Shown here piece after piece: positions 3,430 through 60,368 of a stretch of DNA of 64,000 nt. The DNA comes from Lysobacterales bacterium. GTDB lineage: Bacteria; Pseudomonadota; Gammaproteobacteria; Xanthomonadales; SZUA-5. Every line of letters begins with the position of its first letter. Within the stretch, counting starts at the first letter, position 1. The stretch spans positions 40,359-104,358 of the forward strand of contig JABAQR010000001.1 of assembly GCA_019187485.1 (NCBI GenBank), in the 5' to 3' direction. A program made the translations under genes and the position numbers. The notes beneath the pieces are model-generated. The model saw nothing but the letters and a program-made list of their open reading frames with translations. It did not search any database and had not been told where the DNA came from.

Positions 3430-4104
3430 GTGAGCGATTTGATCCGGCTCTACAGCTACTGGCGTTCGAGTGCGGCCTTCCGGGTGCGCATCGCCCTGAA
3501 TCTGAAGGGCCTCAAGTACGATTATGTCGCGGTGAACCTGGTCGAAGGCGGCGGCCAGCAGAGACAGCCGGCCTTTCACAAGCTCAATCCGCAAGAACTG
3601 GTGCCGGTGCTGATCGATGGCGAACGCGTGGTGCGCCAGTCGATGGCGATCATGGAGTATCTGGCCGAGGTCTACCACGGCGCCGGCTACGCGCTGATGC
3701 CATCGAACGCGCGCGAACGTGCGCGCGTTCGCTCGATTTCACAGCTGGTGGCCTGCGACATCCACCCGCTCAACAACACGCGCGTGCTCGGTTACCTCGG
3801 CGAGCAGTTCGGGGCCAGCCAGGCGCAGAAGGAGATCTGGGTGCGGCAATGGATCGGCAACGGCTTCGTGGCGCTCGAGGAACTGCTGGCGACCAATCCA
3901 TCGACCGGCGAGTTCTGCGAGGGCGACGAACCGACCATGGCCGATTGCTGCCTGGTCCCGCAGGTCTACAACGCGCGCCGTTTCGGTCTCGACATGAACC
4001 CGTTCCCAACCATCGGCCGCATCCACCAGCGCTGTCTGTCGATGAGTCAGTTCGGCGAAGCACTGCCTGAAAATCAACCGGATGCGCCTGGGAGAGGGCG
4101 GTGA
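3430..4104 (+). CDS. maiA: Maleylacetoacetate isomerase (zeta-class glutathione S-transferase)
   Basis: GTG start. The N-terminus LYSYWRSSAAFRVRIALNLKGL..NPQELVPVLIDGE..QSMAIMEYL is typical of the GST-zeta/MaiA family. Confidence 0.85.
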   Translation: MSDLIRLYSYWRSSAAFRVRIALNLKGLKYDYVAVNLVEGGGQQRQPAFHKLNPQELVPVLIDGERVVRQSMAIMEYLAEVYHGAGYALMPSNARERARVRSISQLVACDIHPLNNTRVLGYLGEQFGASQAQKEIWVRQWIGNGFVALEELLATNPSTGEFCEGDEPTMADCCLVPQVYNARRFGLDMNPFPTIGRIHQRCLSMSQFGEALPENQPDAPGRGR

Positions 4105-4243
4105 TTGTCCGGTAGCGACTCCGCGAGATTGCGGCTCCGTCTCGACCGTCGGGTGAAGTGGTCGTCGTGGCCGTTGAGCGGGCGCTTCAAGTCCGTGGCC
4201 GCGCTGCGCGCCTGGCACGCGCTTTCGCGTCGGGGTGTTGCCT

Positions 4244-5596
4244 CTACTCGCGTCGCACTCCGATTGCGTATTTCTCCATGCGCCGGTACAGCGCCTGGCG
4301 CGAGAGGCCGAGGGAAAGGGCGGCTTCGGCGACGACGCCGCCGGCGCGCGCGAGGGCGGCTTCGATCTCGTCGCGGCTGGGCTCGCGCAGTGCGTTGTCG
4401 GCGGCGGCAGCGGTGGCCGGGGCCGCGGGCAGGCCGAGGTCGTCGGCCTGGACCACGCCGTCGCGGCACAGCAGGCTGGCGCGCGTGAGCGCGTTCTTCA
4501 GCTCGCGCACATTGCCCGGCCAGGCGTGTGCCTCCAGCGCGCGACGCGCACCGTCGGACAGGCGTGCCTGTCCGGCCAGGAAGTGCTCGGCCAGCGGCAC
4601 GATGTCCTCGCGGCGCTCGGCGAGAGGCGGCAGGCGCACTTCGATCACGTTGAGGCGGTAGTACAGGTCCTCGCGGAAATCGCCGCGGCGGATCATCGCC
4701 GCCAGGTCCGCATTGGTGGCCGAGAGCACGCGCACCTTGACCTCGCGGGTACGATTGCTGCCCAGGCGCTCGAAGCGCCCGGTCTCGAGCACGCGCAGCA
4801 GCTTCATCTGCCCGGCCGGCGAGAGATTGCCGATCTCGTCGAGGAACAGGGTGCCGCCATCAGCCGCCTCGAAGCGCCCTTCGCGCGCCTTGCCGGCACC
4901 GGTGTAGGCTCCGGCCTCGGCGCCGAACAGTTCGGCCTCCAGCAAGTCGGCCGGCAGCGCGCCGCAGTTGACCGCAACAAAGGGGCCGTCCTTGACCCGC
5001 GAATTGGCGTGGATGATCTCGGCGATGCGCTCCTTGCCGGCGCCGTTCGGGCCGGTGATCAGCACCGGCACATCCGCCCTGGCCACCTGGCAGGCGAGGC
5101 GCAGCACGCGTTCCATCGCCGGCGCGGCGTACACCATGCCGCGCAGATCGTACTCGCGCGCCAGCGAGCGCCGGCCCTCGGATTCGCGCGCCACCAGCTT
5201 GCGCGCCTGGCGGTTGCTCTCGGCCAGCTCCAGCAGGTTGCGTACGGTGGTCAGCAGGCGCGCGTCGTCCCACGGCTTGGACAGATAATCGGCCGCGCCG
5301 GCCTTGACCAGGCCCACCGCCTGTTCGAGATGCGTCCACGCGGTCAGCAGGATCACCGGCAGGTCCGGATGGCGCTCGCGGATCTGCCGGAACAGCACCA
5401 CGCCTTCCTCGCCGCTGGTGGTGTCGGCCGAGAAGTTCATGTCCTGGATCACCAGGTCGACGGGTTCGCGCGCGAGGATGTCTAGCCCCACGCGCGGACT
5501 CTGCGCCGTGCTGACCGTGTGCCCGTCGAGGCCCAGCAGCAGTTCCAGCGCGGTGCCGATGGCGGGGTTGTCGTCGATGATGAGGATGGCGGGCAT
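4244..5596 (-). CDS. Sigma-54-dependent response regulator (NtrC/Fis family): REC, AAA+ and HTH domains
   Basis: REC domain (ILIIDDNP..DLVIQDMNF), AAA+ Walker A (GPNGAGKE), GAFTGA-like loop (GAEAGAYTGA), Walker B (LFLDEIG) and a C-terminal Fis-type HTH. Confidence 0.92.
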   Translation of the reverse strand: MPAILIIDDNPAIGTALELLLGLDGHTVSTAQSPRVGLDILAREPVDLVIQDMNFSADTTSGEEGVVLFRQIRERHPDLPVILLTAWTHLEQAVGLVKAGAADYLSKPWDDARLLTTVRNLLELAESNRQARKLVARESEGRRSLAREYDLRGMVYAAPAMERVLRLACQVARADVPVLITGPNGAGKERIAEIIHANSRVKDGPFVAVNCGALPADLLEAELFGAEAGAYTGAGKAREGRFEAADGGTLFLDEIGNLSPAGQMKLLRVLETGRFERLGSNRTREVKVRVLSATNADLAAMIRRGDFREDLYYRLNVIEVRLPPLAERREDIVPLAEHFLAGQARLSDGARRALEAHAWPGNVRELKNALTRASLLCRDGVVQADDLGLPAAPATAAAADNALREPSRDEIEAALARAGGVVAEAALSLGLSRQALYRRMEKYAIGVRRE

Positions 5597-5652
5597 GTAT
5601 CAGTCGTGAGTAGAAGTTCGGTAGGGCGCCATCAGCAACTAGCAATTGGCAA

Positions 5653-6033
5653 CTAGCGATTAGGGCGAGTTTCCTGGAGGGCTGAATTGCGGTCCAGCGA
5701 CTTTCGAAGCGATTGCAGCATCCGGCCCAGCTCGCTTGCCGAGCGCAGTACTGGATCAATGGGTTCGCGCGTCAGCTCCAGTCTCCCAGCGAGCAGGCAT
5801 TGTGTCTCCAGTTCGGCGAGAGAGCCCATTGCGATGGCGAGGAAGCGCGCGAACTCCCGGGTGAACAACCGAGATCGGCCTTCCGCGATGCACGACGGGA
5901 CGGAAACGGCGGAACGGCGTATCTGTTGCGCCAATCCATAGCGCTCTGTGTCTGGCAAGGACTGCGCAATTCGATAGGCCGCCGTCGCCAGATTCATGGC
6001 GCGTTTCCAAACGTCGAGGTCGCGATAGCTCAT
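5653..6033 (-). CDS. Four-helix-bundle protein, 23S rRNA intervening-sequence protein family (PF05635/TIGR02436; Avd-like fold)
   Basis: Start chosen at MSYRDLDVWKRAMNLA. Family hallmarks are present: YGLAQQIRRSAVSVPSCIAEG and FLAIAMGSLAELETQ. The last codons and the TAG stop (CCT AAT CGC TAG) are supplied by the left hairpin arm. Confidence 0.8.
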   Translation of the reverse strand: MSYRDLDVWKRAMNLATAAYRIAQSLPDTERYGLAQQIRRSAVSVPSCIAEGRSRLFTREFARFLAIAMGSLAELETQCLLAGRLELTREPIDPVLRSASELGRMLQSLRKSLDRNSALQETRPNR

Positions 6034-6150
6034 TGGTACGCGATGGATGATTAGGTTGCGTCGATCAGGGTGCCCCGACAAATTACTTGGCGAACCTCGC
6101 AGGCATTGAATACTCCCGTTGCCACAAACTCTCCTCAGCGCACCCTAATC

Positions 6151-6234
6151 GCTAGTCGCTAGTCGCTAGTTGCTAGTCGCTAGTCGCTAGTCGCTAGTCG
6201 CTAGTTGCTAGTTGCTAGTTGCTAGTTGCTATCT
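6151..6234. repeat. Tandem heptamer array: GCTAGTC/GCTAGTT x11 plus one degenerate unit (GCTATCT)
   Basis: Counted directly, with units starting at 6151, 6158, ... 6221, 6228. The array ends 7 nt before the stop codon (6242-6244) of the permease gene. CTAG is palindromic and the period is 7, so TAG appears in all three frames on both strands. Confidence 0.95.
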
Positions 6235-6241
6235 GCTGCTC

Positions 6242-7459
6242 TCAAGCCGAACGCGTCGCGATCGCCGGCGCGATGCGCGAGGCGCGCAGCGCGGGGCCGA
6301 GGACGGCGAGCTGGCCGAGGATCAGCACCAGCGCGCCGCCGATCGGCAGCCAGGACAGCGGCAACTGGTCGAAGCCGAAGTTCTGCACCAACCAGCCGTT
6401 GACGCCGATCGCGAGCGCCGAGCCGATGGTGATGCCGATCAGCGCGATCAGCGCGTTCTCGGTCTGGAAGTAGCGCAGGACGTCCTTGCGCCGGGCGCCG
6501 AGCGCGCGGCGGGTGCCGATCTGCTTGGTCCGTTGGGTGACCCAGAAGCTGGCCTGGCCAACGATGCCGAAGGCGGTCACAGCCAGCAAAGAGATGCCGA
6601 TCACCGCCAGCAGCACGGCCATCGCCAGATCGCTCTGGAAGGCGCTGCTGCGGATCTCCTCGAAGGCGCGGATGTTGCTGACGATGCGGTTGGGATTGAC
6701 CTTGAACAGGGTTTCCTCGACCACCTTCATCACGCGGTCGCGCTCGCCGGGCTCGGTACGCACGATGAAGCCACCGAGGCCGACGGAGGCGTGCGGCACG
6801 AACACCACGCGGTCCGGGTTGCGTGAGCGCGGCCACGGCGTGGCGATGTGCTCGGTCACGCCGATCACGCGCTGCGACGGCTCGCCCTGGTTGCCGGTGA
6901 TGTTGATCATCTTGCCGATCGCGCTTTCGCCGGGGAACAGGCGCTCGGCAAGGCCCTTGTTGATCAGCACCACCGGCGGGTTGGGCTGGTCGCCCTGCTT
7001 GAACGGGGTGATCTCGCCGGGCGTGAAGTAGCGACCCTCGATGACCTTGGCGCCCAGCGAATCCAGCAGGCGCTCATCGGCGAAATACAACGCCGCGGCG
7101 CGTTCCGGGCCTTCGATGCGTTCGCCCGGCGTCAGCGTCACCGCGGTCTGCCAGCCGTCGCGCACCAGCGGGAAGCTGAAGCCGGGGCTTGCGGCCAACA
7201 CGCCCGGGATCGCGAGGATGGCCTTGATGTCCTCCTCGTTGGCGATCACCGGATCGCGCGTGTTGCCGATGTTCTGGTTGCCGAGCACGAAGACGTTGGG
7301 CTCGTCGACACCACTGGCGATGGCCATCGTGCGGATGCGCTCGGTGACGATGAAGAGCACATTGGCAAGGATCGCCAAGGTCAGCGCAATCTGCGCGGCG
7401 ATCAACACCGCGGCCACCGGATTGCGTTTCATCGAGGAGAGGATGGGGCGGATTTCCAT
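6242..7459 (-). CDS. ABC transporter permease, MacB/FtsX-like (N-terminal TM, periplasmic domain, C-terminal FtsX 3-TM)
   Basis: The track ORF 6242..7681 was trimmed to MEIRPILSSMKRNPVAAVLIAAQIAL, with a GGAG 9-12 nt upstream on the minus strand. The upstream extension reads through hairpin B and looks non-coding. Confidence 0.88.
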   Translation of the reverse strand: MEIRPILSSMKRNPVAAVLIAAQIALTLAILANVLFIVTERIRTMAIASGVDEPNVFVLGNQNIGNTRDPVIANEEDIKAILAIPGVLAASPGFSFPLVRDGWQTAVTLTPGERIEGPERAAALYFADERLLDSLGAKVIEGRYFTPGEITPFKQGDQPNPPVVLINKGLAERLFPGESAIGKMINITGNQGEPSQRVIGVTEHIATPWPRSRNPDRVVFVPHASVGLGGFIVRTEPGERDRVMKVVEETLFKVNPNRIVSNIRAFEEIRSSAFQSDLAMAVLLAVIGISLLAVTAFGIVGQASFWVTQRTKQIGTRRALGARRKDVLRYFQTENALIALIGITIGSALAIGVNGWLVQNFGFDQLPLSWLPIGGALVLILGQLAVLGPALRASRIAPAIATRSA

Positions 7460-7481
7460 TTTGGGACTCCGGGGAAGCGAG

Positions 7482-7628
7482 AGCGGGGCAAGGGGCAGGG
7501 GTCGGGCATCAGGGCAGGGACGGACGTCGAGGTGGCTCGGGAGGGATGCAACCGCGCCATCTCCAGCCCGCGACAGCATTCGTCCGAGCCGCAGGGCAGG
7601 TCCCCTGCCCCTTGACCCTTGCCCCGCT
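7482..7628. repeat. Hairpin element 'B': AGCGGGG(CAAGGGG)n arms with a ~100-nt loop
   Basis: Left arm 7482-7501 is AGCGGGGCAAGGGGCAGGGG. The reverse complement of right arm 7602-7628 is AGCGGGGCAAGG-GTCAAGG-GGCAGGGG. The two are identical except for one extra heptad. Confidence 0.9.
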
Positions 7629-7649
7629 TTGATGGACATCGCACATGGC

Positions 7650-8963
7650 TCACTGGGTCTTGAGCTGCGACGCCGGCGCAATCCGGCAGGCGCGCCAGGC
7701 GGGATAGGCGCCGGCGGCGACTGCGCCGGCCACCGCGGTGACCAGGAGCATCCCGAACAGGCCGACGTCGAGTCGCGCGACGTCGTCGAAATTGGGCATC
7801 AGGCTGCGCACCAGGGCCAGGCCGCCGAGCGTCAGGAGCAGGCCGCAGACCGCGCCGAGCGCTCCAATCAGGCCGGATTCGGTGAGGTGCTGGGCGAAGA
7901 TCGCGCTGCGCCTGGCGCCGAGCGCGCGGCGCAGGCCGATCTCGCCGCTCTTGCGCAGGAACTTGCTGAGCAGCAAGCCGGCGGCGTTCAGCAGGCAGAC
8001 GATCAGGAAGGCCACGCCGACGCCGACGAAGATGCGGGTATCGTCCGGAACCACGTTGTTGACCGCCAGCCAGCCCATCACCGGCGTGATCCGGTGGTTG
8101 TCCGGGCGGCCGAAACGACCGGCCTTGCGCTGCTCGGCGACATAGGCGTCAAGGTAGGCCTGGTAGGCGGACACAGCGGCGGCATCCGGCAGTTCCACCC
8201 AGTATTGGGTCATGATGCACTCGGAGTCCATCAGGCCCCGGTAGCCGGGCGCCGACGGAGGCTGCCAGCAGTTGATGTTGCCGTTGATGTCCATTTCCCT
8301 GGCGGTGGCCACGGTGAATGGCAGGAACACGTCTTCCGGATCGTCGAGGGTGTTGTTGGTGACGTCGTAGAAGCGCGGGCGCAGCTCCCAGGTGTCGAGC
8401 ACGCCGGTGATGCTGAAGTCCTCGTCGTCGAAGCGGATGCGCTGGCCGACCACATCGGTCTTCTTGAACACCCGCTCGGCGAGTTCGCGGGTGATCACCG
8501 CGACACGCGCCTCGCGCTGCTCGTCTTCCTTCGACCAGCCGCCGCCATGCAGGAAGGGGGCGTCGAACATCGCGAACAGGTCGCCGCCGGTGACGCGCAC
8601 CGAGGCGTTGCGCGGGCGCACCTGCGGATCTGCCGGCACCACCACCACGGAGGACTGGTACATCCCGGCCTGGCGCAGGCCCTTGGCATCGGCCATCAGC
8701 CGGCGCGTGTCGCCGTGCGTCAGCTGGTCCGGCGGCAGCCCGCGTTCGCGGTCGTAAGGCGACTGCGGATCCCAGTTGTCCAGCTGCACCGCGTAGAGCA
8801 CATCGCTCTTGTGCGGAATCGGGTTGTTCGACAGCCGGTAGAGCACGGTGAACGAGGTCATCGCCGTGGCCAGGCCCAGCGCGATCGCCAGCACCATCAG
8901 CGTCGACAGCACCGGCGTGCGCTTGAGCGCCAGCAGGGCGAGTTTGAGGTAGTAGGTGAACAT
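7650..8963 (-). CDS. ABC transporter permease, MacB/FtsX-like (second paralogue)
   Basis: Track ORF of 437 aa. It starts MFTYYLKLALLALKRTPVLSTLMVLAIALG, has a large periplasmic domain, and ends in an FtsX-type region (LRRALGARRSAIFAQHLTESGLIG). Confidence 0.9.
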   Translation of the reverse strand: MFTYYLKLALLALKRTPVLSTLMVLAIALGLATAMTSFTVLYRLSNNPIPHKSDVLYAVQLDNWDPQSPYDRERGLPPDQLTHGDTRRLMADAKGLRQAGMYQSSVVVVPADPQVRPRNASVRVTGGDLFAMFDAPFLHGGGWSKEDEQREARVAVITRELAERVFKKTDVVGQRIRFDDEDFSITGVLDTWELRPRFYDVTNNTLDDPEDVFLPFTVATAREMDINGNINCWQPPSAPGYRGLMDSECIMTQYWVELPDAAAVSAYQAYLDAYVAEQRKAGRFGRPDNHRITPVMGWLAVNNVVPDDTRIFVGVGVAFLIVCLLNAAGLLLSKFLRKSGEIGLRRALGARRSAIFAQHLTESGLIGALGAVCGLLLTLGGLALVRSLMPNFDDVARLDVGLFGMLLVTAVAGAVAAGAYPAWRACRIAPASQLKTQ

Positions 8964-8993
8964 GGGGAGTCCTTGGAGTTTCGGGGACGTTGA

Positions 8994-9124
8994 AGCGGGT
9001 CAAGGGGCAGGGGGCAAGGGGGGCGGCACTCGGGCGCTTGCGAGCGGCTCGGCATCGACCGGACTGCGTCGAGGCTGGGGCATGCGGAGTTCTCGGTCCC
9101 CCGCCCCTTGCCCCTTGCCCCGCT
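8994..9124. repeat. Hairpin element 'C': the same AGCGGGK(CAAGGGG)n family as B
   Basis: Left arm 8994-9026 is AGCGGGT CAAGGGG CAGGGGG CAAGGGG GGCGG. The reverse complement of right arm 9098-9124 is AGCGGGG CAAGGGG CAAGGGG CGGGGG. The right arm ends 2 nt before the ATPase stop codon at 9127-9129. Confidence 0.9.
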
Positions 9125-9126
9125 TT

Positions 9127-9846
9127 TCACGCCACTGCGCGCACCCGCTCCACCGCCCGCACCGGGGCAAAGTCGTGTTCCGCGAGGTCGACCACCTGGC
9201 CGTCGACGATGTGCACGTGGCGGCGGGCGCGGCGGGCGAGTTCCAGGTCGTGGGTGACCATGACGATGGTGGTGCCCTGGTCGTTGATCTCCTCCAGCAG
9301 TTCCAGCACGCCGCGCGCCATCACGGTGTCGAGGTTGCCGGTGGGTTCGTCGGCGAGCAGCAGCTTGGGCTCGCCGGCAAGCGCGCGGGCGATCGCGACG
9401 CGCTGCTGCTGGCCGCCGGACAGCTCATTCGGGTAGTGGTGCAGGCGCGAGCCCAGGCCCACCCGCGACAGCGCCTGCTCGATGCGCCGCTTGCGCTCGG
9501 CCTTGGGGAAGCCGCGGTAGCGCAGCGGCACGTCGACGTTGTCGTACAGATCGAGATCGGCGATCAGGTTGAAGCTCTGGAAGATGAAGCCGATCTTCTC
9601 GTTGCGCAGGCGCGAGCGCGCATCGTCGTCCAGCTTCTTGACGTCGATGCCGTCGAGTTCATAGACGCCGTCGGTGTGCTCTTCGAGCAACCCGGCGATG
9701 TTGAGGAAAGTGGTCTTGCCCGAGCCCGACGGTCCGGTCACGGCGACGAACTCGCCGGCCTTGACGTCCAGCGTCAGGTCGCGCAGCGCATGGGTTTCCA
9801 CCAGCGCGGTGCGGAAGACTTTGCGGAGGTTCTGCATGTGCAGCAT
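9127..9846 (-). CDS. ABC transporter ATP-binding protein (MacB/LolD-type)
   Basis: Walker A (GPSGSGKTT), Q-loop, ABC signature (LSGGQQQRVAIARAL), Walker B (LLLADEPTGNLD) and H-loop (VMVTHD). Confidence 0.95.
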   Translation of the reverse strand: MLHMQNLRKVFRTALVETHALRDLTLDVKAGEFVAVTGPSGSGKTTFLNIAGLLEEHTDGVYELDGIDVKKLDDDARSRLRNEKIGFIFQSFNLIADLDLYDNVDVPLRYRGFPKAERKRRIEQALSRVGLGSRLHHYPNELSGGQQQRVAIARALAGEPKLLLADEPTGNLDTVMARGVLELLEEINDQGTTIVMVTHDLELARRARRHVHIVDGQVVDLAEHDFAPVRAVERVRAVA

Positions 9847-9885
9847 AGGTCGGATTCCTCTGGGCGTACTGGGCTTTGCTTCAAC

Positions 9886-10000
9886 GGAGTGAGTAGTCGC
9901 GCGGCTGCGCCGCGCTCAGTAGTGAGTGGTGAGTAGCAAAAGCCCGCAATCTGGACTCTCGCCGCTTCTGCCACTCACTACTCACCACTCACTACTCACC
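9886..10000. repeat. Hairpin element 'D': alternating AGTGAGT/GGTGAGT heptads
   Basis: Left 9918-9936 (AGTAGTGAGTGGTGAGTAG) pairs perfectly, 19 of 19 bp, with right 9978-9996. The right arm 9971-10000 is (CCACTCA CTACTCA)x2 and ends 3 nt before the MFP stop at 10004-10006. An extra left copy sits at 9886-9897 and a nested GC hairpin at 9899-9915. Confidence 0.9.
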
Positions 10001-10003
10001 GCT

Positions 10004-11269
10004 TCACCGCGTCAACAACACTTCCTCCACGCCGCGCAGATCGTCGATGCCGGCCACGATGACCTGCTGGCCGGGCGTGAGGCCGTCGACGACTTCGAAG
10101 GCGGAGACCGAACTGGCGCCGAGGCGGATCGGGTGGCGGCGGGCGACATCGCCGTCGATCACCCAGGCGAAGCTGGCGTCGCGCTCGAAGGCGGGGCCGC
10201 GCTCGACCAGCATCACGTCGGGCTTTTCCTCCAGCAGCACGCGCACCTGCACCCGCTGGTTCTGGCGCAGCGCGGCGACGTTCGCATCGCTCAGGCGGAT
10301 GCGCGTCAGCACCTGCGCGTTCTGCACCTCGGGCGAGACCAGGCGCACCTCGCCGCGCAGCTTCTCGCCGCCGACGGTGACCTCGGCACTCTGGCCCGGC
10401 AGCAGGGATTCGGCGTAGACCTCGGCGACCGCGGCCTCCACCTCCAGCTCGGTCAGGTCGACGACCGTCATCAACGCCTGGTTGGCGGCGACGCTGGCGC
10501 GGTCGGTGACCAGCCAGTTGCCGACCACGCCGTCGAAGGGCGCGCGCACTTCCAGCGCGGCGACCTGGCGCTCAAGCTCGGTCACCAGCACCTGCTGGCT
10601 GGCCAGCTGCTCGTCGAAGGACTTCAGCTCCAGCGCCAGCGCATCGCGCTCCAGCGCCAGGTCGGCCTCGGCCGTGGCCAGCGTGATCCGCGCGCTCTCC
10701 ACCGAATCCTGCGCGCGCTTGAAGTCGAATTCCGGCAGCGCGCCCAGCTTGAACGCGCGCTCGGTGCGCTCCAGCTCGCGCCGCGCGGCCATCTCGGCGA
10801 TGCGCGCGGTGTCGATCGCGCGGCGCTTCTCCAACAGGGTGCGGCGGTTGGTGATCTCCTGGCGCGAACGCTCGGCGGCCACGCGCGCCAGGGTCGATTG
10901 CTCGCGCTTGAGTTCGCTCTCCAGTTCGGGGCTGTCGACGGTCGCCAGCAGCTCATCCTTGCGCACGATCGCGCCCGGCTCGATCGCGAACTTCACGATG
11001 CCGGCCGCGGAGGTGTACAGCGAGGGCGAGCGCGCCGCCACGACCCGGCCCTGCGAGGACACGTCGCGTACCAGCGTGCCGCGCTTGACCTCGCCGATGC
11101 GCACGCGCTCACGCGGCAGAGTGCGTTCTGCACCCAGCGTAGGCGCGAGCAGCCACACGCAACCGATGAGCAGCAGGCCCACACCGCCGGTCAACGCCCA
11201 GGGCCGGCGCCAGACGGGTGCGCCGGTCTGCTGCAGGGGACGGTCGGTGGCAGAGGTATCGCGAATCAT
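10004..11269 (-). CDS. HlyD/MFP-family periplasmic adaptor subunit
   Basis: It has an N-terminal TM (WALTGGVGLLLIGCVWLL), a long coiled-coil hairpin region and a C-terminal beta-barrel. It is the first gene of the MFP-ATPase-permease-permease operon. Confidence 0.9.
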   Translation of the reverse strand: MIRDTSATDRPLQQTGAPVWRRPWALTGGVGLLLIGCVWLLAPTLGAERTLPRERVRIGEVKRGTLVRDVSSQGRVVAARSPSLYTSAAGIVKFAIEPGAIVRKDELLATVDSPELESELKREQSTLARVAAERSRQEITNRRTLLEKRRAIDTARIAEMAARRELERTERAFKLGALPEFDFKRAQDSVESARITLATAEADLALERDALALELKSFDEQLASQQVLVTELERQVAALEVRAPFDGVVGNWLVTDRASVAANQALMTVVDLTELEVEAAVAEVYAESLLPGQSAEVTVGGEKLRGEVRLVSPEVQNAQVLTRIRLSDANVAALRQNQRVQVRVLLEEKPDVMLVERGPAFERDASFAWVIDGDVARRHPIRLGASSVSAFEVVDGLTPGQQVIVAGIDDLRGVEEVLLTR

Positions 11270-11303
11270 CGTGCGCGCAGGGGCAGGGTGGTTGCAGTCG
11301 CTG

Positions 11304-11320
11304 ATGCACGCGCCGTGCCA
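11304..11320 (-). promoter_or_regulatory. Candidate sigma-54 (-24/-12) promoter for the ABC efflux operon
   Basis: The minus strand reads TGGCACGGCGCGTGCAT. Against the consensus TGGCACG-N4-TTGCW, the GG and GC dinucleotides are at canonical spacing. The -12 GC lies about 37 nt upstream of the MFP start codon, and a sigma-54 activator is encoded at the 3' end of the same gene string. Confidence 0.6.
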
Positions 11321-11371
11321 TACCGCAATTCATTGAAGGTACTGCAAACTCTGCTGCGTACGGCGATGGTC

Positions 11372-11409
11372 GGACAGGCCGCGGACGGCGGCCGGACGGT
11401 TACGGACGG
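11372..11409. promoter_or_regulatory. Four phased direct repeats GGAC(A/G)G spaced 11, 11 and 10 bp
   Basis: GGACAG at 11372 and GGACGG at 11383, 11394 and 11404. They lie 53-90 bp upstream of the candidate -24 element. One repeat per helical turn suggests a protein-binding array, possibly a UAS. Confidence 0.4.
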
Positions 11410-11478
11410 CGCTCTCGCCCCTTCCGTGAACCCAGCCTGTGCCGTAGTTTGCGGTGGGCGAACTTGCGGAGAAACGCG

Positions 11479-11856
11479 ATGAACCTGCGCTGTCCGAAAT
11501 GCCAGTCCGACATGGAAAAGGTCTCCACCGCGCATGGCGTGGTCGACCGTTGCACCCAGTGCCACGGCCTGTGGTTCGACCTGATGGAGCACGAGGAGAT
11601 GCGCGCGGATGCGGCGTTGGTCGATATCGGCAGCGAAAAGATCGGCCGCGAGCACAACACGCTTGGACGCATTCGCTGTCCGGTGTGCGCGAACACCACG
11701 CTGATCCGCATGGTCGACCCGCAGCAACCGCACATCTGGTTCGAGAGCTGCCCGGTCTGCTACGGCCGCTATTTCGACGCCGGGGAGTATCGCGATCTGG
11801 CCCAGCACACGCTCATGGATGTGTTCCGTCGCTGGCGCGCGCCGGCGCGCGACTAA
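11479..11856 (+). CDS. Zinc-ribbon protein (two CxxC..CxxC units; TFIIB-type zf, DUF-like)
   Basis: MNLRCPKCQ..RCTQCHGLWFD and RCPVC..SCPVCYGRYFD. The start was trimmed from track ORF 11449..11856. Confidence 0.65.
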   Translation: MNLRCPKCQSDMEKVSTAHGVVDRCTQCHGLWFDLMEHEEMRADAALVDIGSEKIGREHNTLGRIRCPVCANTTLIRMVDPQQPHIWFESCPVCYGRYFDAGEYRDLAQHTLMDVFRRWRAPARD

Positions 11857-22003: not shown

Positions 22004-22047
22004 GCGGCCCCGGCCGGTCAAACACGGAGAAAAGCCCAACCGTGGTT

Positions 22048-22076
22048 GCGCCCTCTGCGCCCTCTGCGTCTCCGCG
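22048..22076. repeat. Solo tandem 9-mer array GCGCCCTCT x2 plus GCGTCTCC
   Basis: Counted directly. The reverse-complement unit AGAGGGCGC matches the element-E unit AAAGGACGC at 7 of 9 positions. I found no inverted partner. It lies 11 nt from the cysB-like stop codon. Confidence 0.75.
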
Positions 22077-22087
22077 TTGAACCGCCA

Positions 22088-23047
22088 TCAGGAGGCGAAC
22101 CACCCCGGCTCGCCGAACTCCGCCTTCTCGAGCCCCGCCAGCACCCGCCGCAGCGCGGCGAGGTCCAGACCCGGAGACAGCCCGCGCAGCAGCGCCAGCG
22201 TGTAGTCGCGCGGCACCCGGTTGGCCGGCAGCAGCGCGTAGGTGGTGCAGGCGGCGATGCGCTCGTCGAGCGGGATCGCACGCACGCTGTCCGGGAGCCT
22301 GCGCGTGGCGAGGTCGGCGACGATGCCGACGCCAATGCCCTGTTCGACGTAGGTGCGGATCAGCTCGGCGTCGCTGGCGGTGACCGCGTATTCCGGCTTC
22401 AGTTGCTGCTCGGCGAAGGCCGCCGCCAGCGAGGAACCTGGTCGCACGGTCGAGGGGTAGACCAACAGCGGTTGAGTGGCGAGATCGGCCAGGCGCAACA
22501 GTCCGCGATCCGCGAAGGCATGCCCGGCCGGCACCAGCGCCACGCGCTTCCAGCGGAACAACGGGACCGCCAGGCCGGACTCCGGCGGCAGGCCGGCGCT
22601 GGAGGACAGCGCGACGTCGACATCACCGCCGCCAAGGGCCTCGACGATGCGCGCGGGATCGGTGGTCTCGATGGCCAGGCGCACGCGCGGGTAGCGCAGC
22701 CGCAGCGCGCCAAGCGCATCCGGCAGCACGAAACGCGCGAGCGTGTGCGTGCACACCAGGCGCAGCTCGCCCTCGGTCTCGGCGCGGGTGTTCGCGGCGA
22801 AGGCGCGGATGCTTTTCGCCTGGTCGACGATCAGGCGCGCGCGCTGCGCGACCTCGGCACCGAGCTCGGTCAGCCCGGTCAGGCGCTTGCCGTTGCGCAG
22901 GAACACCGGGAAACCGAGTTCGTCCTCGAGCGCCTTCAACTGCTTGGACAAGCCCGGCTGGGTCGCGTGCACGCGCTCGGCCGCCTGGGTGAGGTTCAGG
23001 CCGGAATCGACGATCGCAATCAGGTGGCGGAGCTGGATCAGGGTCAT
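22088..23047 (-). CDS. cysB: LysR-family transcriptional regulator, CysB-like
   Basis: HTH (LNLTQAAERVHATQPGLSKQLKALEDELG), CTHTLARFVLP and DAELIRTYVEQGIGVGIVADLA parallel the E. coli CysB motifs TSQPGISKQ, THTQARYALP and DADVIKTYVRLGLGVGVIA. It is divergent from cysG. The gene symbol is tentative. Confidence 0.8.
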   Translation of the reverse strand: MTLIQLRHLIAIVDSGLNLTQAAERVHATQPGLSKQLKALEDELGFPVFLRNGKRLTGLTELGAEVAQRARLIVDQAKSIRAFAANTRAETEGELRLVCTHTLARFVLPDALGALRLRYPRVRLAIETTDPARIVEALGGGDVDVALSSSAGLPPESGLAVPLFRWKRVALVPAGHAFADRGLLRLADLATQPLLVYPSTVRPGSSLAAAFAEQQLKPEYAVTASDAELIRTYVEQGIGVGIVADLATRRLPDSVRAIPLDERIAACTTYALLPANRVPRDYTLALLRGLSPGLDLAALRRVLAGLEKAEFGEPGWFAS

Positions 23048-23465
23048 GGAGGGGCAGTGAATGGTGAGTCGTGACTAGGCTTCGACATGCGGGATGGTCG
23101 ACGCATCCGCCAGGAAGTTACCGAAGACAGACGTCCTGGTGACTGAGTCACTCGACCGGTGCCCACCGGGTGCGTGCAGTATCCGGGTCAATCGCAGGAA
23201 GTTGCGGTGAACGGGTGCGATGGTTGCGACCCGGATATCCGATCCCTTCGTGGTGCCGGACTGTGTGCCACGCCCGGCGCGCAGACACGCAGAACTCTTA
23301 ATGGGACGTCTGGACGTCCAGTGTAGAGGCCGTGCGCCGGTGTGGACAAGGGCATCCGGCGCGTGCGGATGGCATGCCGGGTTCTCATAAGTACACGGCG
23401 TGTACTCATTTCTACGGCCGTGCCTACGGTCATACCCTGCCTGCATCCGCCTGCGGAAGCCATCG

Positions 23466-42625: not shown

Positions 42626-42683
42626 GGGATAGACCAGCTCTCCAAACACCCGATGACTCGCAGATCTTCGGACAGCAGATTGG

Positions 42684-42757
42684 TCCGCAAAGGACGCAAA
42701 GGACGCAAAGGAATCAAGAGCTTCTGCTTTCTTCGCGTCCTTTGCGTTCTTTGCGGA
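42684..42757. repeat. Hairpin element 'E': 30-nt arms built from three CGCAAAGGA 9-mers, with a 14-nt loop
   Basis: Left arm 42684-42713 is TCCGCAAAGGACGCAAAGGACGCAAAGGAA. The reverse complement of right arm 42728-42757 is TCCGCAAAGAACGCAAAGGACGCGAAGAAA, matching at 27 of 30 positions. It lies between convergent gene ends. Confidence 0.9.
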
Positions 42758-42847
42758 CAAGAAGCTCCTGTCGGTAGATGATGCGCGTGTCACGTAGTCC
42801 GCGTTGCGGACAACGTGACCTACGAAAACAATGACTTGTCGGATGTT

Positions 42848-58937: not shown

Positions 58938-59023
58938 GGAAAAAGGGAAAGGGAAAAAGGAAAAAGGGACTTGCGTCCCGGTGGCGCGCCTTCCCCTTTT
59001 TCCTTTTTCCCTTTCCTTTTTCC
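58938..59023. repeat. Hairpin element 'F': 32-nt all-purine arm and all-pyrimidine arm
   Basis: Left arm 58938-58969 is GGAAAAAGGGAAAGGGAAAAAGGAAAAAGGGA. The reverse complement of right arm 58992-59023 is GGAAAAAGGAAAGGGAAAAAGGAAAAAGGGGA, differing only by a shifted G. The 22-nt loop contains a GGGAC-TTGC-GTCCC mini-hairpin. The element starts 14 nt after the tRNA-Lys and ends 13 nt before the trpS ATG. Confidence 0.92.
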
Positions 59024-59036
59024 TGACCCGCTCCCG

Positions 59037-60368
<1,332 letters not shown>

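Follow-up and report, generated by a model that had tools for sequence, protein, structure and literature searches.

The operon and its junction hairpins

The stretch of Lysobacterales DNA considered here, 64,000 nt long and referred to below as the window, carries on its minus strand, from 11320 down to 4244, an operon for which Pfam and NCBIfam assignments bear out the gene string proposed in an earlier reading made from the letters alone (hereafter the sequence-only reading): an HlyD-type membrane-fusion protein (periplasmic adaptor, MFP), an ABC ATPase, two MacB/FtsX-type permeases (PER1 and PER2), a four-helix-bundle (4HB) protein of 126 amino acids (aa) from the PF05635/TIGR02436 family, and an NtrC-type sigma-54 activator (response regulator). 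The four spacers considered below, which measure 157, 163, 190 and 645 nt, as had also been proposed, each hold one long hairpin with arms of tandem 7-base repeats; the hairpins are labelled D, C, B and A from the MFP gene onward, and A encloses the 4HB gene. These hairpins, and their relationship to genes of the 4HB family, are the subject of this work. The accompanying remark that co-directional genes elsewhere in the window overlap was too general: six pairs do so, by 4 nt, and the other co-directional gaps range from 8 to 360 nt.

Repeat search and folding both recover one long inverted repeat per spacer at all four junctions, and Tandem Repeats Finder reports a period of 7 in A, B, C and D. 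The four long junction hairpins are real: they are insertions on the transcribed strand within the operon, and members of a widespread family of palindromes with tandem 7-base arms. Hairpin D, built from GTGAGTA/GTGAGTG units (rotation AGTGAGT), folds at -74.5 kcal/mol with a z-score of -8.1 against shuffled sequences; hairpin C, with the unit GGGGCAA (rotation AGGGGCA), reaches z -3.7 and is followed by an AAGGA tail before the next ATG. Hairpin B uses the same GGGGCAA unit and ends in a GGAG tail before the ATG; its z of -2.1 is weak when taken alone, yet the repeat is conserved in the orthologous loci L001 and L082. The 5' arms of B and C share a nearly identical stretch of 38 nt (AAAGCGGGGCAAGGGKCAAGGGGCRGGGGACC) and their loops are unrelated, a pattern that suggests conversion among arrays, or arms that were seeded separately, and not duplication of the element as a whole. 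In contigs of GCA_963204805.1, GCA_020848135.1 and GCA_021404805.1 the operon is 100% identical, and seven further contigs from other read sets or metagenomes match it at 99.96-100%; agreement of these ten contigs over the whole operon excludes both an assembly artefact and a strain-variable simple sequence repeat (SSR).

The placement of the hairpins follows simple rules, which the sequence-only reading had anticipated. The 5' arm starts 1 nt (D), 1-2 nt (C), 21 nt (B) or 7-10 nt (A) after the upstream stop codon, the 3' arms end 22-65 nt before the next starts, and a short tail of 22-38 nt with GGAG, AGGA or GAGGA precedes the ATG. Rho-independent (intrinsic) terminators were considered and rejected, since the 3' arms run into tails bearing Shine-Dalgarno (SD) sequences and not into T runs; no terminator-like or sigma-70-like site and no U-tract was found at any of the four junctions. 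A known RNA family was likewise rejected: at the gathering threshold, Rfam detects in the whole window a tRNA-Lys only, with no rRNA, and at E<=1 over positions 4000-11500 it gave nothing but sub-threshold noise.

Table 1. Positions of the operon genes, the junction hairpins and the similar elements elsewhere in the window
Feature	Position	Strand	Remarks
Sigma-54-type promoter-like site TGGCACGGCGCGTGCA	11305..11320	-	36 nt 5' of the MFP start
HlyD-type membrane-fusion (periplasmic adaptor, MFP) gene	10004..11269	-	Pfam, NCBIfam
Hairpin D	9883..10003	-	arms 9978-10002 / 9912-9936, 92% complementary; outer pairing to 9883
ABC ATPase gene	9127..9846	-	Pfam, NCBIfam
Hairpin C	8993..9125	-	arms 9098-9125 / 8993-9020, 86% complementary
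MacB/FtsX-type permease 1 (PER1)	7650..8963	-	Pfam, NCBIfam
Hairpin B	7482..7628	-	arms 7604-7628 / 7482-7506, 84% complementary
MacB/FtsX-type permease 2 (PER2)	6242..7459	-	Pfam, NCBIfam
Element A, 5' arm	6143..6231	-	12.4 tandem copies of GCAACTA/GCGACTA (score 132) and inner unique stem half GCGATTAGGG
4HB gene, PF05635/TIGR02436, 126 aa	5653..6033	-	Pfam, NCBIfam
Element A, 3' arm	5634..5665	-	inverted heptamers GCTAGTT/GCCAATT/GCTAGTT; overlaps the last 4HB codons (RPNR*) and stop
NtrC-type sigma-54 activator (response regulator)	4244..5596	-	Pfam, NCBIfam
Solo array	22047..22072	-	period 9, 9-mer GAGGGCGCA; about 14 nt after the stop of gene 22088-23047 (-)
Solo array	about 23050..23082	-	degenerate C-type heptamers directly before the start of gene 22088-23047
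Hairpin E	42683..42758	.	three copies of the 9-mer CGCAAAGGA per arm; between convergent genes
Hairpin F	58938..59023	+	GGAAAAA/GGGAAA arms; between tRNA-Lys and a TrpRS-like gene starting at 59037

Element A and its four-helix-bundle gene

Element A differs from the other three in that its arms pair across about 480 nt. Over several registers, the 3' arm pairs with the 5' array at 88-90% complementarity, and in the minimum-free-energy fold of the whole spacer (z -3.7) the arms close around the 4HB open reading frame (ORF). The encoded protein scores 109 bits against PF05635 (cut-off 33.8, E 1.6e-31) and 109 bits against TIGR02436 (cut-off 24), retains the QxxRSxxSxxxNIAEG and GSLxEL motifs and has 2GSC (XCC0516) as its nearest PDB entry (E 1.4e-24). 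With a dN/dS of 0.05-0.11, the ORF is under purifying selection. The window holds one copy of the gene, and among 77 ABC-operon loci there is likewise one, in the orthologous locus L004.

The third-position GC content (GC3) of the 4HB gene is 0.69 (overall GC 0.61), as against 0.90-0.92 in the neighbouring genes. Despite this atypical GC3, the gene has been present at the junction since before the divergence of lineages in which dS is saturated. Either repeated replacement by recombination or selection against a host-like codon composition could account for the anomaly.

Heptamer-armed stems around 4HB genes

In its anatomy, element A corresponds to the 23S rRNA intervening sequences (IVSs) that bear an ORF, and we therefore asked whether 4HB genes generally sit in heptamer-armed stems. 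Metagenome contigs were scanned with an alignment of 34 relatives of the 4HB protein, which yielded 80 loci; the analysis covered 73, made up of the 69 unrelated loci with usable flanks and four from the operon itself (the window, L004, L078 and L082), with gene calls made by simple ORF and GC3 heuristics. An enclosing repeat was defined by z>=7 and an arm of at least 18 nt, in the interval from 350 nt upstream to 300 nt downstream of the ORF.

Such a repeat encloses the gene in 45 of the 73 loci, and the best period of the arm is 7 in 40 of these and 8 in 4; decoy positions 900 nt to either side in the same loci gave 0 enclosing repeats out of 105. A heptamer array is present in at least one flank of 54/73 loci, other periods being essentially absent. 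The median distance from the 5' arm to the 4HB start is 42 nt and that from the stop to the 3' arm 12 nt, the latter arm often lying within the last codons of the ORF, and the upstream neighbour is co-directional in 50 of 61 loci. None of the 80 metagenome loci lies in rRNA, as judged by the absence of the conserved 23S motifs near helices 25 and 45. The association was replicated in 26 4HB loci of the IMG/VR viral collection, where 22 loci have 7 as the best period and 19 reach z>=7. Furthermore, within the same loci, heptamer arrays occur in 55% of the gaps next to the 4HB gene compared with 20% of other gaps (Fisher p=2e-6), and the distal, ORF-less arrays match the arm unit of the local 4HB gene (cyclic distance 0-1) in 27 of 69 cases (39%), as opposed to 4% across loci. 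The sequence-only reading had suggested that the hairpins may be tied to the 4HB cassette; the tie is borne out and is far stronger and more general than that suggestion.

Almost every 4HB locus has a unit of its own. Nevertheless, the units are not arbitrary: AG occurs in 34 of 40, against an expected 49% (p=4e-6), with the loose consensus AGKGGTY, and the 5' arm has more G than C in 40/45 loci (p=8e-8). The window units, in the rotations AGTGAGT, AGGGGCA and AGCAACT, fit this type of consensus, and so, by our comparison, do TAACTGA (AGTTATC on the other strand) and the Nostoc repeat GGGGAYT (AGTCCCC). Thus the earlier statement that the copies share architecture and not sequence is upheld as far as a single, architecture-defined family is concerned, but it is too strong, given the common AGKGGTY consensus and the boundary motifs of the Lysobacterales copies described below.

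Several individual loci connect the survey with repeats already on record. In Lysobacter yangpyeongensis the order glyA-4HB-nrdR is accompanied by GGGAATR arms, the unit type reported by Rehm et al., and in locus L117 an array of nine TAACTGA-type units begins 3 nt after the 4HB ORF. Locus L176 presents a very lopsided palindrome that is adjacent to the ORF rather than around it: downstream of the 4HB gene, at 10356-10573, more than 20 CAGTTGG/CAGATGA G-type units run in the orientation of the upstream arm and are followed by a short C-type array. The 4HB gene in this locus comes after a PemK/RHH toxin-antitoxin pair and lies beside a type I-C cas operon. A gene of the 4HB family has been reported between cas genes (PMC3936711; PMC10910872), a position that fits a hitchhiker at operon junctions.

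No paper was found in which heptamer repeats or the short tandemly repeated repetitive (STRR) sequences are linked with PF05635, S23p or four-helix-bundle proteins, subscription-only literature being outside the scope of the search. The general association with PF05635 above all, and also the diversity of units and the occupation of every junction of one operon, appear to be new.

Heptamer arrays in Xanthomonas and in related Lysobacterales

The STRR sequences of cyanobacteria were the first heptamer repeats to be noted; hundreds of copies were later found in Xanthomonas, Nostoc and Beggiatoa. To our knowledge, these tandem repeats have no assigned function or origin.

Judged by their sequence, the junction hairpins correspond to a described class, the inverted pairs of heptameric SSRs of Xanthomonas (Rehm et al., 2015; PMC4692102). 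In that genus, GGGAATC arrays number about 186 per genome and form 70-75 convergent pairs, potential stem-loops that occur preferentially between aligned ORFs; the G-rich strand follows a stop codon within 50 bp and the C-rich strand precedes the next ORF, the arrays are transcribed, and their loci are conserved between species although their lengths vary; no function was found, and an association with mobile elements was generally lacking (PMC4692102). The likeness extends to a Lysobacterales/Xanthomonadales host, a period of 7, a position between co-directional ORFs and frequent pairing, with a G-rich array just past the stop and a convergent C-rich array just before the next start, as well as to conserved loci at which array length varies between relatives. 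At least two tandem 7-nt units in non-coding DNA, as in the described class, are present in A-D, and F has units of 7/6. By contrast, the G-quadruplex (G4)-capable unit GGGNATC is replaced in the window by GTGAGTA, GGGGCAA and GCAACTA/GCGACTA, and one of the window copies, A, encloses a gene. The related TAACTGA repeats have been described in Beggiatoaceae, cyanobacteria and Bacteroidetes, together with related cyanobacterial STRR heptamers (MacGregor, 2015; PMC4679880); neither that paper nor PMC4692102 mentions PF05635 genes.

Rehm et al. proposed that such arrays form G4 or i-motif structures which modulate transcription or translation, and oligonucleotides of GGGAATC and GGGGAYT do form G4s in vitro (PMC4692102). 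The units of B and C (GGGGCAA, with at least four tracts) could do the same. However, four tracts of at least three G are absent from D (GTGAGTA), A (GCAACTA), E (CGCAAAGGA) and F (GGAAAAA), as they are from many units that flank 4HB genes elsewhere, such as AGATATC, AGTTTTC, ACGTTCA and AGTATTA. Because most units are incapable of forming G4s, this potential is not the common property of the family, and we regard an explanation in these terms as very improbable.

The positional rules were examined in 977 kb of Lysobacterales DNA fetched around permease orthologues and paralogues, a sample of loci and not of whole genomes. Here 7 is the sole period enriched between genes (45 intergenic versus 17 coding arrays), other periods being mostly coding or absent. 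In co-directional gaps the G-rich array adjoins the upstream stop in 18/19 cases, at a distance of 2-39 nt, and the C-rich array adjoins the downstream start in 14 of the 19; the proximity to stop codons emphasised in the sequence-only reading is thus a general feature of these repeats. Solo half-arrays are common as well. Many copies have TGA-A(A)AGC before the first unit and GCTTC after the last, and they often end in an SD-bearing tail such as TCTCCAAAGGAGA, so that the element, to go by these sequences, appears to carry its own ribosome-binding tail. GGGAATC arrays are present in related loci of Rhodanobacter and Dyella.

The 3' arms of the GGGAAT type are often followed by a small, conserved palindromic SD module, TCTCC(A/G)AAGGAGA, a few nt before the next start (for example, L033 7458-7510, L075 1-60, L057 276-330 and L010 1240-1290). 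The filled junctions in the clade of the window likewise gain GGAG/AAGGA and CCCC before the ATG.

Gain and loss of hairpins in orthologous operons

A neighbour-joining tree of concatenated PER1, PER2 and NtrC places the window (WIN) and the orthologous loci as (((WIN,L082),L001),(L002,L003),(L004,L078)), then L006, then L007/L009. At the PER1-PER2 junction, L002, L003, L006 and L009 have no hairpin B, only TGA, 7-9 nt and ATG; WIN, L082 and L001 have a GGGGCAR hairpin of 190-210 nt, identical to that of the window in L082 and orthologous in L001; and L004 and L078 have a GAGGGCA hairpin of 97-134 nt. On the tree, this distribution calls for two gains or one precise loss. The protein ends at filled and empty junctions are identical (...ASQLKTQ*/MEIR). 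Comparison with orthologues, which the sequence-only reading had recommended, therefore reveals junctions that are either minimal or filled, with hairpins gained or lost and the flanking protein ends left untouched.

The PER2-NtrC junction varies in content as well. The 4HB gene is found there in WIN, L082, L004 and L078 (65-87% aa identity), and it is replaced by an ORF-less GTGAAAT hairpin in L001 and by solo arrays in L003. Locus L082 (GCA_016713135.1) is 98% identical to the window through both permeases up to the PER2 stop and 84% identical beyond it (4HB and NtrC), with a different, degenerate spacer of 280 nt at L082 2716-3000 compared with window 6242-6231; the drop in identity at the stop codon implies a recombination breakpoint that coincides with the 5' arm of A. 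In L082 a cognate PAS/HATPase kinase gene lies downstream of the NtrC gene, and the junction between them (4803-5027) holds a further heptamer palindrome, with GGGTTGT as its unit and about 78 paired columns. After NtrC, the window has a convergent GST-like gene instead of a kinase gene.

Where hairpins are retained, their units change and their arms remain complementary. At junction D the unit is GTGAGTA in WIN, GTGAAAA in L003 and GGGGCTG in L004, and at junction C the pair GGGGCAA/TTGCCCC of WIN corresponds to GGGGCAC/GTGCCCC in L004 and L078. Such turnover at a single junction points to concerted evolution and is compatible with the possibility that the palindromes are by-products formed in situ wherever intergenic DNA is permissive, through slippage of heptamers as an intrinsic bias of the polymerase and correction of quasi-palindromes, with 4HB genes merely lodging in, or surviving best in, loops already present and no dedicated relationship between protein and repeat. 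The strand symmetry of the stems and the lack of shared loops are consistent with this scenario; moreover, a polymerase-slippage rationale for heptamers is cited in PMC4692102, and lodging in loops would parallel the occurrence of IVSs in rRNA tetraloops. However, a by-product would hardly be expected to accompany 4HB genes across lineages of very different GC content, each with a unit of its own, or to show an AG-anchored consensus with a fixed G-first polarity; nor would nearby ORF-less arrays be expected to match the 4HB unit ten times above chance, or the Lysobacterales copies to have conserved terminal motifs. We consider this scenario unlikely.

Pairing at the RNA and DNA levels

In the sequence-only reading, the hairpins were taken as RNA-level elements that act on the polycistronic mRNA. 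If pairing were kept for the sake of an RNA function, a signature of the transcribed strand would be sought in an excess of G:U over A:C columns, and this comparison was negative. In 17 junction hairpins of known sense there are 486 Watson-Crick, 23 G:U, 25 A:C and 43 other columns, and around 4HB genes 64 G:U against 47 A:C columns (p=0.13). The orientation with the G-rich arm first is the same on both strands. Moreover, the arms can be very unequal in length: A has 12 units in one arm and 3-4 in the other, and L004 shows the opposite imbalance. Taken together, the absence of a G:U excess, the unequal arms, the solo half-arrays and the differing loops of B and C make the complementarity look like the outcome of a strand-symmetric DNA process. 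This suggests that pairing is not maintained by selection at the RNA level; common origin of the arms, conversion between them and recognition of inverted repeated sites are candidate processes.

The proposal that the host selects these hairpins as RNA elements, which process, stabilise or translationally uncouple segments of the mRNA and set the stoichiometry of the pump subunits, with the 4HB gene as a passenger, nevertheless has several points in its favour. Placement relative to the stop and to the SD and start is fixed; the hairpins at junctions C and A persist across diverged lineages; in Xanthomonas, 83% of the arrays are kept between Xcc and Xac, in unusually stable loci (PMC4692102); and units change in concert in the two arms, as described above for junction C and as seen in an A-U to G-C double change in hairpin B between the window and L001. 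Apart from the lack of a G:U excess, the gross inequality of arms and the frequency of solo half-arrays, this proposal has to contend with sister lineages in which junctions of 7-9 nt separate identical protein ends, and it leaves the stems around 4HB genes in unrelated genomic contexts without an explanation. Thus, the RNA-level function envisaged in the sequence-only reading is not supported by the data, in view of the G:U counts, the strand-identical polarity and the minimal junctions of sister lineages, and host selection for such a function is doubtful.

Whatever maintains them, the stems will form in polycistronic RNA, and duplexes of 25-45 bp are classic substrates of RNase III. In the Coxiella 23S IVS, a 28-bp stem around an S23p ORF is cleaved in mid-stem, and removal by RNase III is on record also for IVSs of Salmonella, Leptospira and Alphaproteobacteria (PMC4990558). 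By analogy with the IVSs, RNase III cleavage of the junction stems is plausible and can be predicted.

A family of palindromes associated with 4HB genes

We propose that D, C and B are ORF-less forms, and A an ORF-bearing form, of a 4HB-associated family of heptamer palindromes which resembles the REP/REPIN-RAYT systems (repetitive extragenic palindromic sequences, their paired forms and the associated transposase), is tolerated after stop codons and is probably cut by RNase III; we assign to this reading a probability of roughly one half. Under this proposal, the elements would be DNA-level, strand-symmetric repeats that propagate or renew themselves, with the 4HB pentamer as their cognate protein, and would settle in the first nucleotides past the stop codons of co-directional genes. 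There, a snap-back hairpin would keep the stop beside the next SD and start and would add an SD-bearing tail, so that expression of the operon survives. Given that stems of 25-45 bp are expected to be RNase III substrates in polycistronic mRNA, as they are for the 23S IVSs with the same gene family, the operon transcript would probably be segmented at the junctions and the 4HB message released separately. The diversity of units could arise from slippage combined with concerted evolution of the two arms.

Short extragenic palindromes just downstream of genes, together with a RAYT (TnpA-REP) gene flanked by inverted copies, are the hallmarks of REP/REPIN systems. The family described here resembles them in that palindromes are dispersed 3' of genes, a single protein gene is flanked by inverted copies, and non-coding copies far outnumber that gene. 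It differs in that the flanked gene encodes a 4HB protein (PF05635 only) instead of an HUH/Y1 transposase, with no transposase domain in the operon, and in that arms of tandem heptamers with variable units and unrelated loops take the place of one conserved palindrome of 20-40 nt. We know of no catalytic activity of 4HB proteins. The arms are also reminiscent of the terminal inverted repeats of miniature inverted-repeat transposable elements, but no target-site duplication was seen and the loops of B, C and D are unique.

A close parallel to element A is with the ORF-bearing 23S IVSs (Leptospira, Coxiella, Brucella and the Xanthomonas-type S23p; PMC4990558): in both, terminal inverted repeats form a long stem with a PF05635 (S23p) ORF in the loop, and the element lies within a host transcript, the continuity of which it breaks without harm. 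However, A lies in an mRNA, between permease and regulator genes, rather than in helix 9, 25 or 45, and the Coxiella ORF is thought to be untranslated (PMC4990558), whereas the 4HB ORF of the window is under strong purifying selection. Another relative is Avd of the diversity-generating retroelements (DGRs), a homologous pentameric four-helix bundle with a nucleic-acid partner (PMC10053308), and the 4HB protein of the window gives weak matches to PF22296 bAvd. Unlike in DGRs, there is no adjacent reverse transcriptase and no template/variable repeat pair in the window or the orthologous loci, where the neighbours are the permease and NtrC genes, and flanking heptamer arms have not been described for DGRs.

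On a more specific level, PF05635 pentamers could be dedicated partners of heptamer arrays, which read the AG-anchored units and direct the creation, renewal or spread of the arrays, plausibly with one 7-nt unit per subunit; protein and repeats would then make up a novel type of system. The geometry, in which the G-rich strand runs 5' to 3' towards the centre from both sides and arms but not loops are shared, would fit telomere-like templated addition to two DNA ends followed by their joining. We put this forward only as a tentative possibility.

A number of observations weigh against the proposed family of self-renewing 4HB-associated palindromes. With unique loops and only the arms common to B and C, copy-and-paste of whole elements is unsupported; whole-element transposition was rejected because of the unrelated loops and the lack of a visible target-site duplication, and none was detected when filled and empty junctions were compared. 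Derivation of the ORF-less hairpins from the 4HB cassette by deletion was likewise rejected, as the loops of B, C and D resemble neither 4HB cassettes nor one another at the nucleotide or protein level. In the window, the unit of A is 2-4 positions away from those of B, C, D and F. Pfam detects no recombinase, transposase or reverse transcriptase among the operon genes, and the ten assemblies show no length polymorphism of the phase-variation kind and no variation in copy number. Furthermore, 28 of the 73 surveyed loci have no significant enclosing repeat, and the metagenome and viral samples are confined to relatives 35-55% identical to the 4HB protein of the window and include a few near-duplicates. 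Finally, lineages that have diverged by about 25% at the protein level still retain hairpins C and A, and this persistence, along with the conservation of arrays in Xanthomonas (PMC4692102), could reflect a host function rather than selfishness.

The PF05635 family is large and structurally solved (XCC0516, 2GSC), and we know of no role for it outside the Avd of DGRs. The present observations join this puzzle with that of the heptamer repeats, in that a heptamer-armed stem normally surrounds the gene and the ORF-less arrays close by often repeat its unit; the two puzzles thereby become a single system that is amenable to experiment. The link also connects heptamer SSRs and STRR sequences with IVS ORFs and orphan Avd-like genes. 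If 4HB proteins are indeed the partners of the arrays, this would account for the excess of heptamer SSRs (STRR, GGGAATC and TAACTGA) in cyanobacteria, xanthomonads, Beggiatoaceae and Bacteroidetes, as well as for the 23S IVS ORFs and the thousands of orphan Avd-like genes in operons, including those of cas genes. In practical terms, palindromes within operons, cas operons included, may cause a 4HB gene to be mistaken for a functional associate of its neighbours. Palindromes of this kind also create recombination breakpoints, and they place 100-250 nt of strong structure between translationally coupled genes with no apparent harm.

Other features of the window

The promoter-like site upstream of the MFP gene, TGGCACGGCGCGTGCA, is the sole match of the sigma-54 type in the window and, taken alone, is not above chance; at the equivalent position, the orthologous locus L004 has TGGCATGGGTCATGCA. 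A gene for a zinc-ribbon protein of the Zn_ribbon_TFIIB type (11449-11856, plus strand) diverges from this site. A minus-strand ORF at 11266-11808, which overlaps the zinc-ribbon gene and would lengthen the operon upstream, is probably not real.

The sequence-only reading had listed further copies outside the operon. Hairpin F, with the same architecture, a period of 7/6 and z -5.1, was confirmed as such. Hairpin E folds well (z -9.5 / -8.4) and also has the same architecture, but its period is 9 and not 7, which makes its membership uncertain. The solo arrays noted near 22048 and 23056 are present too. They flank the minus-strand gene 22088-23047, with a G-type array after its stop and a C-type array before its start, the halves that decay of two palindromes, one on either side of the gene, to solo arrays would leave.

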